Shown here piece after piece: positions 26,293 through 62,335 of a stretch of 64,000 nucleotides of DNA. The translations under genes were made by a program, and so were the position numbers. This DNA is from Sphaerodactylus townsendi (Eukaryota). The stretch spans positions 150,102,001 to 150,166,000 of the forward strand of contig NC_059426.1 in the NCBI RefSeq assembly GCF_021028975.2. Direction: 5' to 3'. Positions within the stretch are counted from its first letter, which is position 1; each line of letters begins with the position of its first letter. The notes below the pieces were generated by a model that was not told the origin of the DNA, ran no database searches, and was given only the letters and a program-made list of their open reading frames with translations.

Positions 26293-26378
26293 GACAGAAA
26301 TCAAATGGTGCCTTTAGAACTAACCAAGTTTATTCCAACGTTATCTTTCTTGCATCACAGCTCACTTCAACAGATGAA
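26293..26378 (-). mobile_element. Degenerate Penelope-like element arm
   Basis: ggtgcctttagaactaac..tttattcc..cacagctcacttc..cagatg resembles recalled reptile PLE pseudo-LTR arms. Confidence 0.5.
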
Positions 26379-36582: not shown

Positions 36583-38069
36583 ACCCAGCAGTAATTTCTG
36601 TTGATGAGAGGAATTTCTGTTAGCAAAATGAGACTTTCTTGCTTCCCCTGACCTGGTGAGGCCTGAAATGCTCCCTCAAATGCTTCTCTTGTGCTACCTG
36701 AGATCCATATAAAGTAGGATTTAGAGGAAATTCCTCTGCAATCAGCCTTGGGTGAGGGATCTTGGGCAGGCAACTAAAGAGAAACTGGATGCCTTCTCTG
36801 AAGCTATCCACCCAGGATACTACATCCAAGACTGACTGCAGAGGTGTTTCCTTCGTGTCCTATCTTCATGCCTGCCAGGGAGGCAGAAAGGAAGACCCTT
36901 AGGGTACCTGGCTGTGACTATTCCGATCCTTAAATTCAGTTGAATCCCAGGTTTTCAGTTTTACCTGTAAACATGATGGGCAGATATTTTTATGGACTTC
37001 TCAGTGCCGGGTTTAGAGAAATTGTGTGATGTTTCTCTCTGTTTCTACGCAGACAATGATCTTCGCATTGCCTAAATGGAAGAAAAAGAAGATGATGTAT
37101 GAAGGAATGAAATTAGAATGTGTGCAATCAAATGATAGGTAAGTACTTTGATGTTCCATTGGATTCAAAAGGAGAGTTCAGTGTGTTTAAACTCCTTTCT
37201 TTGCAGTCAATGGAACTGCCATTATTTTGCCCTATATGCTTTCCTGTTCCAAACTGATTTGGAAGGAATCACTGAAAAAAGTATAGAAACTCAATAAAGA
37301 AAAAAAAAGTATTTTTATGTGTACCTAAATCAGTCACAGCTCTCAGTGTCGCTATAAATGCTGATAGAACAGACTCATCTTGTATCTTTCACAAGAAGCA
37401 AAATGGCTTGTAACCTTTGATGAACATCATGGAAAATACTACAAGGTTGTACAATTGTTTTTTGATGTTGAAAGCTCTTGACAAGCTATGTTTGTGAAAG
37501 AGAAAGGATATGGAAGACCAGTGATAGACAAATCCACCTGGGTCTGCTTCACAGTCAGACTTGGCCATTTAAATAAATCGAGAACTGTGCCAACATGCTT
37601 ATATATAAAGTGCACATTGCTTACATTATCTTGAGCAATGTGCACTGTGGGAAGGGTTGTAATCCCATCATGCTTCCCATGATTCATTTAGACTTTCTTG
37701 GAGTATCCAAAGCCCCCAGCCCAGTCTGTCTGGTATGCTAGTTCTGTTAGTTCTGAGACTGGTGTGGGAGCAATAGGCAGATATGTCATCCAGCAAGCCA
37801 TCTAAAAATCAAGTGCTGTGTGTTTTCAATTGGATTTTATAATCATAATTTTTTTTGCATTTTAATGTTTAAGTGGTTTAACTTTTTTATGTTCACCACC
37901 TCTTGGACCATGATTAGGTGAAAAGGCAGCATGAAAATAAAGTAAATAATAAAGTAAACGAAAAATGTCCCCTTCTCCTCAGTTCCTTCGTTCTCTTCTT
38001 TATCTTTCCTATTGAGTCAGAAACTGTGCACAACGCAGAAATGTTGGTTCCATGATGTCCAGTTGTGTT

Positions 38070-38108
38070 AAACCACACAGCACCCCAGTGAAAGTCTTCG
38101 ACAATACA
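38070..38108 (+). mobile_element. Penelope-like element 3' terminus (39 bp)
   Basis: aaaccacacagcaccccagtgaaagtcttcgacaataca matches the PLE tails at ~60803-60855 and 62285-62333, with a ~12-nt deletion between tga repeats. Confidence 0.7.
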
Positions 38109-38730
38109 GAGATCAAATAGTTTGTTCACAGGAACATAATAACCCTGCAAGTATTGGCAAACACAGCAATCAGATTCTTCGGCTCCAAAACAAGATCAGG
38201 ATTAGTGCAATAGAATGAATGAGTTCTAAGGACACCAATAATCTTGTAAAGCACCTTGTCCCAGAGTTCATCGATGAAAGCTCTGCTTATCAGCCCTTGA
38301 GTTACATGTAACATGTGATCTTGCACTGCAAAAAAACCTGCAATTTGACTGAAGTATCTTCTGTAGCCTTCTACTGTTTCCTGCATGTTTAACTGTGGCT
38401 GTAATACTAGTCTTGCCTGTTTCCTTTTCTGTTTTCGTAGTTGTTTTCAAATGTCTCTGCATCAGCCAGAACTGAATAAACATGGAAGAATATGTACATG
38501 GGAGAAAAATCTACCAGATCATGAGCTGTCAAAAACTCATCTTCATTTTGCTCCTCCTCCTCCTCCTCCTCCTCCTCCTCCTCCTCCTCCTCTTCTTCTT
38601 CTTCTTCTTCTTCTTCTTCTTCTTCTTCTTCTTCTTCTAGGTTTTGCTTTAAAACCATTTCATTTCTTGTTTCTGGAACACCACAATTATTTATATACAT
38701 ATTTCTCCCACCTTCAGTGCCATTTTCAGG
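38109..38730 (-). pseudogene. EXOC6: Processed (intronless) pseudogene fragment of exocyst complex component 6 (Sec15)
   Basis: Three overlapping minus ORFs give NMYIN..PETRNEMVLKQNLE(n)..LTAHDLVDFSPMY..YSVLADAETFENNY / ..MQETVEGYRRYFSQIAGFF..HVTQGLI..DELW..VLRTHSFYCTNPDLVLEPKNLI / QGYYVPVNKLFDL, colinear with recalled vertebrate EXOC6. ETV, GYRRYF, HVTQ and QGY favour EXOC6 over EXOC6B. There are two 1-nt frameshifts, and no introns across a region split over several exons in the parent gene. The 5' boundary is approximate. Confidence 0.92.
38551..38637 (-). repeat. (GAA)n(GAG)n trinucleotide expansion encoding ~29 Glu within the EXOC6 pseudogene
   Basis: (ctc)n(ttc)n on the plus strand, in frame with the pseudogene. 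Confidence 0.97.
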
Positions 38731-57009: not shown

Positions 57010-58170
57010 AGTATCTGAAAATGTGGTCCCTTCAGTAGCAAAATTCCAATGTGCCCCCACACCCATCCTCTAGGACAGGGGTAGGGAACCTTTAACACTC
57101 AAAGAGCCATTTGGACCCGTTTTCCACGGGGAAAAAAAACACTTGGAGCCGCAAATAATTTTTGACATTTAAAATAAAGATAACACTATATATATAGGGG
57201 TTTTTTTAACCTTTTACTCTGCTCATTCTGAGAAGCGCATGGATGCGCCCGCCCTGCTGCCTGCAGGGCGGGCAAGGATGAAGCCGGCGGCTTGGCCTCG
57301 TGGCCGCTGGGAAAGCACCCGCCCCGCTCCAACAAGGCGGGCAAGAGGGGAAGCCACTGGCGTGGACCCAACCGACCATGGAGGCAGTTAAGTCGCGTCC
57401 ACCGCCTTGCTGCCTGCAGAGGCCGAGCAAGGATGGGGGCGATTAATTTCCGGCTTCAAAGTACAGACCACAGTGCAAGGGCAGAAAAGCTGCAGGTTCC
57501 CTACCCCTGCTCTAGGACCACTAATACTGCATGAGGCACATTTACAATCAAATGCACTCCAAGGGTAAACTTCTCTGTATCTTTGATAAGAAGGTTAGTT
57601 GCAGCAACCTCCCTAAGACATGGTGGCCAGCCTTTAGCTACAATGTCAAGACAAGTAAGCAACTGGCCATTTTGTGAGCCAAACATCTGACATAAGACCC
57701 CATTTGTTATCCCTTTTGTCTTGTTCTGAAATAACTAAACAGGTTTTGTTATATCAGGGAGTCCTCAAGCAAAGGCTTGTAACAGATCTCATTTGATTTC
57801 TCTGAGCATTGTCACATTTCTTATTTCACTCTAAGGGGTCTTTACCAGCTCCCTTCAAAATGTTGTACAGATGCTATAATTCCAAAATTGAGAATCCAGG
57901 TTATATAGTACCATGCCAATCCCAAAAATCCCCTTAATTGATGATGATTGATTGGGATACCTCTTCTACAAATCAACTGTTTCCTGTCTAAGGTCAATTT
58001 TCCCTGGGTTGCAATGTAATACTGAACCACCTTTTGACAGGTCTGCGCCTTTTCTTTTGAAACTTGGAATGGTTCTTGCCCTAAAAAGTTCACTGAACGT
58101 ATAGTAACTTGGACATAGTCCTCTTCAGTGGGGGGAGGAATCAATAAGTCATCTGCATACTGGCCACAGT
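57010..58170 (-). mobile_element. Endogenous retrovirus pol remnant (class I, gamma/epsilon-like RT and tether), interrupted by a hAT MITE
   Basis: QYADDLLI..VSKEKAQTCQ..V.Y..QLRGFLGLA.Y...WI.NF; downstream LPDITKP and LDIVAKGWPPCLREVAA..LLIKDTEKFTLG..L.V.VPHAV are typical of class I ERV pol. Frameshifted. Confidence 0.88.
57076..57509. mobile_element. Non-autonomous hAT element
   Basis: TIRs caggggtagggaacct / aggttccctacccctg; perfect TSD ctctagga (57068-57075, 57510-57517). Confidence 0.93.
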
Positions 58171-58215
58171 CCATTTCCCCAGCAAGGAGCCAAACCAGAA
58201 AGCCAGGTCCTAGTG

Positions 58216-58894
58216 GAGTCCCCCAAAACTGTTACCTTTTAATCTTAGGGTTCAAGGATGGTACCTGGTATCAGTAAACCCAAAAACTAAAATCAAGAGT
58301 GGAAAGTAAAGTCATTTATTTTGAAGCTGCAAAAGGCACTCTGTTAGCATGAAGCTCAAAGAAACAGGCACACTGTGATGCGGGTTACAATTCCTTTTAT
58401 ACAATTCAAGTAGCACATGACATAGCAACAGCTTCCTCATTGGTTCTTTTTATATATATCTTCCTCCCCCTACATGAATATTTAAGTTCGCTTTAAACTG
58501 CTTTCTGACACACACACAGACAATCTGCACTGGAACTCTTAGCATGACCTGTAACAAGCTCTACATGTTTCATATTCTTCCTATCATTTTGATACCCAAA
58601 GCCCCAGTTTTGTGTGCATGTTTCCTGAAGCTGGGATAGAATATGGATTCTGCTGGTTTACTGCCAAGTGTGCCCACCCTGCTGTCCAGCTTTCTACCTG
58701 GCTAAGCTGATTGAGTCAGATTTGGCATAGAGAACCCCAAGGACTGATGGGAACTTCAATATTTATTGAGACTACCGTGACTGATAGTCACCATGAATAT
58801 CATGGAGCTGTCCCAGATCATTCTAGTCTCCACATCTATAGCTGGAGTTATTCTTTACCGAGTTTTTCGTGAAACAAAATCAGTTCCATCTACA
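58216..58894 (-). mobile_element. Putative ERV 5' LTR plus primer-binding site
   Basis: On the minus strand: TATAAAA (58395-58401), AATAAA (58315-58320), LTR end ..ggtaaca at 58230, then TGGGGGACTC (tRNA-Pro-like PBS start). The LTR 5' boundary (tgtag at 58894) is tentative. Confidence 0.6.
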
Positions 58895-60660: not shown

Positions 60661-60857
60661 AGGATGTTGTATGTTTTTTTTGGTTGCATGACTGTGTTCT
60701 AGTGGTATTTTCTCCTGACATTTCACCTGCATCTGTGACTGGCATCTTTAGAGGACCATACACTACTGGAGAAAATACTTTTGGAACACAGCTATTTAAC
60801 CCAAAAAACACACCGCATCTTAGTGATTCCAGCCATGAAAGCCAACGACAATACATT
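60661..60857 (+). mobile_element. Penelope-like element, inverted pseudo-LTR remnant
   Basis: Same family as 62069-62335, with the central part deleted. Confidence 0.75.
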
Positions 60858-60865
60858 AATGCTAA

Positions 60866-61586
60866 TAAGAACATAAGAACAAGCCAGCTGAATCAGACCA
60901 AAGTCCATCTAGTCCAGCTCTCTGCTACTCACAGTGGCCCATCAGGTGCCTTGGGGAGCTCACATGCAGGATGTGAACGCAATGGCCTTCTGCGGCTGTT
61001 GCTCCCGATCACCTGGTCTGTTAAGGCATTTGCAATCTCAGATCAAGGAGGATCAAGATTGGTAGCCATAAATCAACTTCTCCTCCATAAATCTGTCCAA
61101 GCCCCTTTTAAAGCTATCCAGGTTAGTGGCCATCACCACCTCCTGTGGCAGCATATTCCAAACACCAATCACACGTTGCGTGAAGAAGTGTTTCCTTTCA
61201 TTAGTTCTAATTCTTCCCCTCAGCATTTTCAATGAATGCCCCCTGGTTCTAGTATTGTGAGAAAGAGAGAAAAATTTCTCTCTGTCAACATTTTCTACCC
61301 CATGCATAATTTTGTAGACTTTAATCATATCCCCCCTCAGCCGCCTCCTCTCCAAACTAAAGAGTCCCAAACGCTGCAGCCTCTCCTCATAGGGAAGGTG
61401 CTCCAGTCCCTCAATCATCCTTGTTGCCCTTCTCTGCACTTTTTCTATCTCCTCAATATCCTTTTTGAGATGCGGCGACCAGAACTGGACACAGTACTCC
61501 AAGTGCGGTCGCACCACTGCTTTATATAAGGGCATGACAATCTTTGCAGTTTTATTATATATTCCTTTTCTAATGATCCCCAGCAT
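60866..61586 (-). mobile_element. Young 5'-truncated CR1 LINE (ORF2 C-terminus intact to the stop codon)
   Basis: MLGIIRKGI..LYKAVVRPHLEYCVQFWSPHLKKDIEEIEKVQRRATRMI..RTRGHSLK..FFTQRVIGVWN.LP; (TTCTTATG)n tail. Confidence 0.96.
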
Positions 61587-62068
61587 AGTTTGAAAAGCAG
61601 TTCTGAACAGAAAGGATTGAAACATGAATTGTCAACTCTGGGCTGAAAGAATTACTTGAGATTTAGGGGTGGCAGGTGGGACCTCAGTGGGATATAATGC
61701 CATTGAATACATACTAAAAAGCAATCATTTTCTCCAGGAAAGCTCATATCTTTAATCTGGAGATTGGTTGCAGTTCCAGGAGATCTACAGCCTCCACACA
61801 GAAGTCACCATCATAACAAAAAGGGGCAGGTGCACCAGAAGATACATTCGAACACCACTCTGCACCAATAGGTTTAGGTCCCAATGGACCAAATAGTCTT
61901 TGTAGCAACTTGCAACAATGTTTTACCATAAGGAACAATTCCAATAATTCTATTCCATAAAGGAGCTATGTGATGAGTCATATATATCTGTATATGAATG
62001 TATCAAGTTGATACAATTGCAAAAAGAATTCATAAAAGCAATTTTTGGGGGGTTAAACAATATTTTAA

Positions 62069-62335
62069 AGGGTGTTGTGGGCTTTCCAGGTTGTATGGCT
62101 GTGTTCCAGTAGCATTTTCTCCCAACATTTCACCTGCATCTGTGGCTGGCATCTTCAGAGGATCTGATGGTAGAATATATACTCCACTTGCTTTACTACC
62201 ATCAGATCCTCTGAGGATGCCAGCCACAGATGGAGGTAAAACTTCAGGAGAAAATGCTACTGGTACACGGCAATACAACCCGGAAAACTCACAATACCCT
62301 AGTGATTCTGGCTGTGAAAGCCTTCAAAATACATT
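62069..62335 (+). mobile_element. Penelope-like element: inverted pseudo-LTR pair with 3' tail and hammerhead motifs
   Basis: Arms 62069-62173 and 62195-62300 are inverted repeats; 35-nt tail; CTGA(A/G)GA..GAAA motifs. Confidence 0.85.

Follow-up and report, generated by a model that had tools for sequence, protein, structure and literature searches.

Within the 64,000 nucleotides of Sphaerodactylus townsendi DNA analysed here, referred to as the window, a spliced internal fragment of EXOC6 meets the 3' end of a Penelope-like element (PLE), and we consider it quite probable that this PLE had inserted into a pre-existing EXOC6 retrocopy, whose far side was probably lost. The composite is real, but most likely an ordinary fossil and not a new gene-copying route. 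We favour such a nested insertion because of the geometry of the junction, the relative divergence of its two parts, the score of the junction as a target site and the presence of a second EXOC6 retrocopy that is free of PLEs. Among the observations that speak against it are that the matches listed for the organisms B and C contain neither a longer nor an empty, pre-insertion allele and that short solo tails without a target-site duplication (TSD) are a minority among PLE insertions (about 4 of 117). The order of events, the deletion and the founding enzyme are what we infer. The features on which the argument is based are compiled in Table 1.

Table 1. Positions of the described features within the window.
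Feature	Position	Strand	Description
Left flank	37966..38069		Single copy; unrelated to EXOC6 exons, introns and UTR
3' end of Poseidon-type PLE	38070..38108	+	Last ~18 nt of pLTR body and tail; short-tail variant lacking 12 nt
14 nt adjoining the tail	38109..38122	+	Target-site score typical of PLEs; no duplication partner, although one is expected
EXOC6 processed pseudogene	38109..38710	-	~Residues 245-422; seven spliced exons, cut inside the seventh
(GAA)n(GAG)n microsatellite	38551..38638	-	29 Glu codons compared with 5 Glu in the parent
Other PLE remnant, long tail	60682..60855	+	Adjoins a presumed CR1-like fragment
Other PLE remnant	62070..62335		Head-to-head inverted pair with long tail

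A spliced copy of EXOC6 that ends inside an exon

The retrocopy originates from EXOC6 on C8, from which it differs at 60 of 527 letters, and its frame at 38126-38446 (-) retains up to 79% identity to squamate EXOC6 proteins; a paralogue of the gene was located on C10 when the genome was searched with the DNA. The copy can be divided into seven consecutive blocks, each corresponding to a separate GT-AG exon (G000:C8:36,380,325-36,390,599), with identities of 85-92% to parental exons that are spread over about 10 kb and whose joined translation is a substring of the protein P0011. Six exon-exon junctions are crossed, and the parental introns have thus been removed. The copy is disabled by two 1-nt frameshifts and shows the neutral decay of a processed pseudogene, with differences at 24 of 216 0-fold sites of residues that are invariant in 13 vertebrate EXOC6 proteins and changes in seven of eight parental CpGs. 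Its 5' end is firm at 38710, a further extension to about 38739 being weak (45 of 1000 shuffles), and the internal microsatellite has grown out of the five Glu codons of the parent. On the other side, only the first 36 nt of the seventh exon are retained, and the copy breaks off at the residues VNKLFDL. An earlier note on this DNA had correctly described an intronless internal piece of EXOC6 ending at this point, and the exon-exon junctions by which it proposed to confirm this are present in the seven blocks.

It had also stated that no EXOC6 continuation, 3' UTR or poly(A) follows, and we found none in the left flank or in the 94 kb around the site. Genome-wide, the 3' part of EXOC6 was recovered neither in a search with the whole protein, in which 43 of 43 candidates were scored, nor with a query comprising 2 kb of the last exon and UTR. 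Since this part is found nowhere, a deletion must be assumed. Neither the 3' poly(A) nor the TSD of an L1-type retrocopy was found at the EXOC6 copy; both could have been lost secondarily, with L1 as the presumed origin. Twin priming, which would place the 3' part on the opposite strand, was rejected as no UTR or CDS match was obtained in 94 kb, with the caveat that drift may have altered a UTR that is GC-rich in the parent. Compared with the middle exons, the GC content is far higher in the last exon of EXOC6 and its UTR (L076, G000:C8:36,312,000-36,314,600), and the 8.6 kb from the last exon onward contain no AATAAA.

The PLE terminus and its junction with the retrocopy

The 39 nt next to the retrocopy match the consensus of a short-tail PLE subtype at 38 letters. 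The earlier note had equated them with the tail of the two other PLEs in the window; their assignment as a PLE 3' end and their alignment to a PLE consensus hold, but the match to these two elements (33 and 31 of 39 letters) exists only across a 12-nt gap, and a blastn search with the 39-mer inside the window gives an E value of 0.77. In the genome, the short-tail form is present at 28 places (within 3 mismatches; L034-L043 and L084-L101), compared with 6,936 exact long tails. The 12 nt lie between two GTGA repeats, and their deletion is seen in two subtypes, with 18 copies in one and 10 in the other; for this reason, it has probably arisen repeatedly, through slippage at an early stage of reverse transcription, and is not the marker of one subfamily.

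The first 39 codons of the PLE family and a C-terminal 56-residue peptide are, respectively, 67% and 68% identical to P0122, an 836-residue Anolis reverse transcriptase (RT) protein with an RVT_1 match (E 8.9e-14) and a GIY-YIG-like motif that was read by eye, Pfam giving none. Through this match, the family possesses the ORF with RT and C-terminal GIY-YIG endonuclease by which Penelope/Poseidon elements are recognized, and its members show the tail of 30-40 nt on one arm, the inverted, 5'-truncated partner and the short TSD, of which the window copy has the tail only, with neither inverted arm nor TSD. A CTGANG core, as would belong to a minimal hammerhead ribozyme in the pLTR, is located ahead of the ATG in 45 of 90 long copies, a region to which the 39-nt piece does not reach, and in 38 of these 45 the distance from the ATG to the tail end is 118 nt. 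The tail end in the window corresponds to ORF position +118 of the long type, and the start of reverse transcription of the Anolis element was mapped in vitro to 111-118, according to the available part of PMC11167929. An Rfam search for hammerheads in three PLE loci gave no match. Elsewhere in the window, the stretch 60862-61631 (-), which we take to be a CR1-like 3' fragment (no Pfam match), comes with its end to within a few letters of the long-tail PLE remnant's tail on the + strand in another tail-to-tail meeting of retroelements, and a short degraded frame at 57842-58231 (-), seen by eye, resembles what we assume to be a retroviral or LTR-element reverse transcriptase.

The tail and the EXOC6 copy adjoin at 38108/38109 without a spacer, one T being assignable to either side, and are oriented oppositely, both as claimed in the earlier note, with their 3' ends facing each other tail-to-tail. 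For comparison, we used 117 ordinary insertions, consisting of the 27 other short-tail and 90 long-tail copies, latter taken from the first 100 listed on C1 out of 6,936. The sequence after the tail is repeated across the element as TSD in 82 of them (8 of 118 in a swapped-flank control), and an inverted arm is found in 69. Target DNA is thus what usually follows a tail; in the window, EXOC6 occupies this slot, and its position, together with the coincidence of the junction with the mapped RT start site, supports an ordinary PLE insertion. On a 14-nt profile obtained from the other flanks, the junction ranks 29th among 816 retrocopy positions and above 74% of true sites, and it ranks 31st to 35th under other settings. 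In the distal half of the profile, the junction reaches ranks 2-4 of 816 with the letters of the retrocopy versus 248-303 with those of the parent, which hints that the site became a good PLE target after the EXOC6 copy had mutated, in a contrast that rests on two letters of a profile split post hoc under 8 settings; the proximal half is unremarkable. A partner of the 14 nt, as would be left by a duplication, was not found within 94 kb at 2 mismatches, except for a chance-level match at 26297.

Among the 117 insertions, 35 have no TSD and 18 neither TSD nor inverted arm as judged by script, and on inspection about four similar short solo ends remained (L143, L158/L159 as one duplicated locus, L165 and L181), whereas a TSD was recognized in L117 and, in L144, an arm that belongs to a divergent subtype. 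The PLE in the window falls into the shortest class of insertions. Its length of 39 nt, the absence of a TSD and the loss of flanking DNA would also fit the repair of a break, where resection removed the 3' part of the retrocopy and a short PLE cDNA served as patch without a cut by the PLE endonuclease. With a junction located exactly at the tail terminus and scoring as an endonuclease target site, we regard such repair as unlikely. It is very unlikely that the retrocopy and the PLE had inserted apart and were joined by a later deletion. Retrocopies in this genome do break, as illustrated by a copy of HSP90 on C4, which ends in its coding region at a MITE and whose UTR and A-rich end are found inverted about 2.9 kb away, but a deletion with random endpoints would rarely stop precisely at the final base of the tail, of which all 21 letters are kept.

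The second option of the earlier note, in which the PLE machinery captures host mRNA, would require that either the 3' end of a PLE sense strand or a PLE RT running off an antisense template found a primer site on EXOC6 mRNA through short base pairing, with about 600 nt being copied and the tail and the retrocopy entering together. The order of flank, PLE sense and EXOC6 cDNA on the + strand would then reflect one continuous RT run, and the parental sequence past the junction resembles the tail end at 5 of 6 letters with a bulge, a microhomology that allows priming by capture but equally fits normal priming. In the available parts of the respective sources, PLE RT is described to start internally on RNA (PMC11167929) and antisense PLE templates are proposed (PMC3846280). 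Capture is opposed by the lack of a TSD framing tail and retrocopy together, the observed flanks being matched in score by 59% of 300 random ones, and by a junction that fits a DNA target profile including the side of the second nick.

Other arrangements were considered and rejected. A template switch from PLE RNA to mRNA would leave both parts co-oriented, whereas here they lie on opposite strands with their 3' ends in contact; had both strands of the target been primed, the 3' ends would point outward, as we infer from target-primed reverse transcription and the inverted pairs. A PLE-mobilised gene of the Adineta type does not match a locus with one PLE end only, no introns and no TSD. The left flank is not a templated insert, being single copy in the genome, and a remnant inverted arm at the left junction is not supported, since the 5-bp hairpin that the flank forms with the first letters of the PLE is equalled in strength by shuffles. 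As a separate observation, the last 1-4 tail letters are often swapped for target letters (L084, L086, L090, L092, L096, L099 and 80 TSD-bearing copies). The pre-insertion letters at -4 to -1 lean to A, A, C, A, with A at -1 in 62 of 80, which hints at primer-template pairing in a bias that is partly circular, as the TSD finder could start at -4.

Relative age, relatives and other retrocopies

With a divergence of about 11%, the retrocopy has changed about four times as much as the tail, which differs from its subtype at one of 39 letters, and twice as much as this subtype, for which 59 differences in 1119 letters (5.3%) were counted over 17 copies outside the search pattern; in the other subtype, 54 of 630 letters differ (L093 left out). 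The comparison is suggestive of a retrocopy older than the PLE tail (Fisher p=0.076), with only 39 tail letters contributing and the PLE copies selected through a search pattern biased towards young insertions, and it counts against a capture of both parts at once.

The composite is common to organisms A, B and C, as capture would also have it. A single contig of organism B spans 37300-38540, from which it departs by 14 differences and 2 gaps, and organism C contains this stretch in two contigs that overlap inside the tail, where each junction is crossed with only 21-22 tail-side letters under the bridging rule; the 5' end of the retrocopy is common to both. The orthologous locus, which the earlier note had suggested as a check, thus contains retrocopy and tail together, but B and C are only 1-3% diverged and too close to order the two events. 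Since both carry the same composite, the order is deduced and not seen. The reading that we favour corresponds to the first option of the earlier note, which had called it the more parsimonious one for a single case: the PLE entered a retrocopy that was already older, and what lay downstream was lost. Contigs of organism D are near-identical and therefore uninformative, and run X8 provided short near-identical contigs and one 86%-identical piece of the flank that stops short of the junction.

A second EXOC6 retrocopy at G000:C4:129,761,760-129,762,720 (L032-L033) is also internal and comprises nearly the same exons. It is about twice as diverged as the window copy (45 versus 22 of 197) and extends about 60 nt beyond the window junction, where it is interrupted tail-to-tail by 3' pieces that are presumably CR1-like, similar to the window element at 60862-61631, to resume for about 20 nt in the next exon (1 of 100 shuffles). 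A reading of this copy into the intron, based on a 10-letter match, was rejected with 31 of 300 shuffles being as good and the next exon resuming later. There is no PLE at its ends, the nearest being about 4 kb off. A common retrocopy ancestor of the C2 (window) and C4 copies is not supported by shared changes: among 197 conserved 0-fold sites, 7 are altered in both copies, with 5.0 expected and 3 shared. The nested insertion does not account for two independent retrocopies of nearly the same internal part of EXOC6 in a genome with few retrocopies of highly expressed genes.

A search with four highly expressed families yielded only three retrocopies, GAPDH on C1 and HSP90 on C4 and C7. The HSP90 copy on C4 (L202/L205/L237, G000:C4:131.892-131.897 Mb) is young (~95%), and that on C7 (L206, C7:80.724 Mb) is a short fragment that stops 9 nt after the stop codon. 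An RPL21 match on C4 was rejected as an intron-containing gene, and an EEF1A-type search gave no clear retrocopy. Two intron-containing genes of the RPL21 family were observed (L138, C4:30.805 Mb; L139-L140, C14:31.04 Mb), whose exons are 84-86% identical. The three copies contain no PLE sequence in the loci analysed, and none of the four other retrocopies, which include the EXOC6 copy on C4, abuts a PLE, a result that counts against capture in a sample too small to exclude a rare PLE route. At the ends of two of the four (EXOC6 on C4 and HSP90 on C7), neither poly(A) nor a PLE is visible. As breakage and lack of poly(A) both appear in control copies that lack a PLE, such features are not tied to PLEs here, and the premise of the earlier note that the lack of poly(A) is unusual is weak, with tailless retrocopies also described in the available part of PMC5322556.

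The density of PLE tails (3.8-32 per Mb) translates into a chance of 0.2-8% for a retrocopy of 0.6-2.5 kb to be hit, and with some hundreds of retrocopies, as in Anolis, a few PLE-hit ones are expected. In a Pfam survey of 335 ORFs in the 700 nt after 118 PLE tails, in which the EXOC6 frame of the window itself, as positive control, gave no EXOC6 family match, so that the survey carries no weight on enrichment, four other loci had matches (L121, L126, L146 and L155), of which L146 and L155 look like ordinary intronic insertions near exons.

Published PLE capture concerns intron-containing genes framed by direct pLTRs and a TSD, as far as described in the available parts of PMC8557442 and PMC6431247, and no report of PLE-made spliced retrocopies was found in the literature covered, which leaves most subscription papers outside. 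We have found no support for the capture of EXOC6 mRNA by a PLE and consider it quite unlikely; equally improbable is the general proposal that Poseidon-type PLEs of geckos make poly(A)-less internal spliced retrocopies by tail-end priming on short complementarity.

Proposed course of events and comparison with known systems

In the nested insertion that we favour, an EXOC6 mRNA, whose splicing is evident, would have been reverse-transcribed and inserted, probably by an L1-type element, and its copy has decayed neutrally to the observed divergence of about 11%. The PLE endonuclease would then have nicked the sense strand of EXOC6, with RT copying PLE RNA from the start site in the tail, a mechanism that we adopt from the available part of PMC11167929 for a junction that is directly seen. 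After 39 nt, the cDNA may have been linked to DNA lying past the retrocopy, or, indistinguishable from this, a longer insertion may have later been deleted along with the EXOC6 3' part. These events would all predate the split of organisms A, B and C, as seen for B in one contig and less firmly for C.

As read here, the locus matters little, being a dead retrocopy with a nested element and at most a gecko presence/absence marker. If capture were true, it would provide a second enzyme source of reptile retrocopies, of which 404 are counted in the lizard Anolis and for which L1 is the assumed source (PMC3136929, available part), it would bear on the priming of PLE RT, and it would define a route unlike the intron-retaining capture of rotifers. 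The by-products of the analysis, the TSD and target profile of 117 insertions and the recurrent 12-nt tail deletion, may outvalue the locus for work on the PLE mechanism.

With retrocopies that contain nested transposons, the composite shares spliced exons, frameshifts, neutral decay, 5' truncation and a younger element at the break, whereas here the 3' part, poly(A) and TSD are gone and the founding enzyme is unreadable. LTR-mediated retroposition by template switching reportedly joins internal mRNA fragments to retroelement sequence and is said to give co-oriented element sequence on both sides, unlike the single, opposite-facing PLE end found here. With PAc of Anolis carolinensis, whose ORF would be P0122, the family shares the tail end at +118, the tail on one arm of inverted pairs, AT-rich targets and, presumably, the ATG at the start of a hammerhead-like stem (PMC11167929, available part), whereas the window copy consists of a lone 39-nt end whose tail has lost 12 internal nt, PAc being compared by description. 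In Adineta vaga, a captured host gene keeps its introns and lies between direct pLTRs within a TSD (PMC3846280, available part); host gene sequence adjoining a PLE terminus is common to both cases, but in the window the gene is spliced, placed outside the tail, arranged tail-to-tail and has no TSD. Finally, tailless retropseudogenes are, like the EXOC6 copy, 3'-truncated copies of RNA without oligo(A), but as far as described in the available part of PMC5322556 they are flanked by TSDs and terminate where A-rich stretches served for internal priming, whereas here the end is set by the PLE terminus and no TSD is left.
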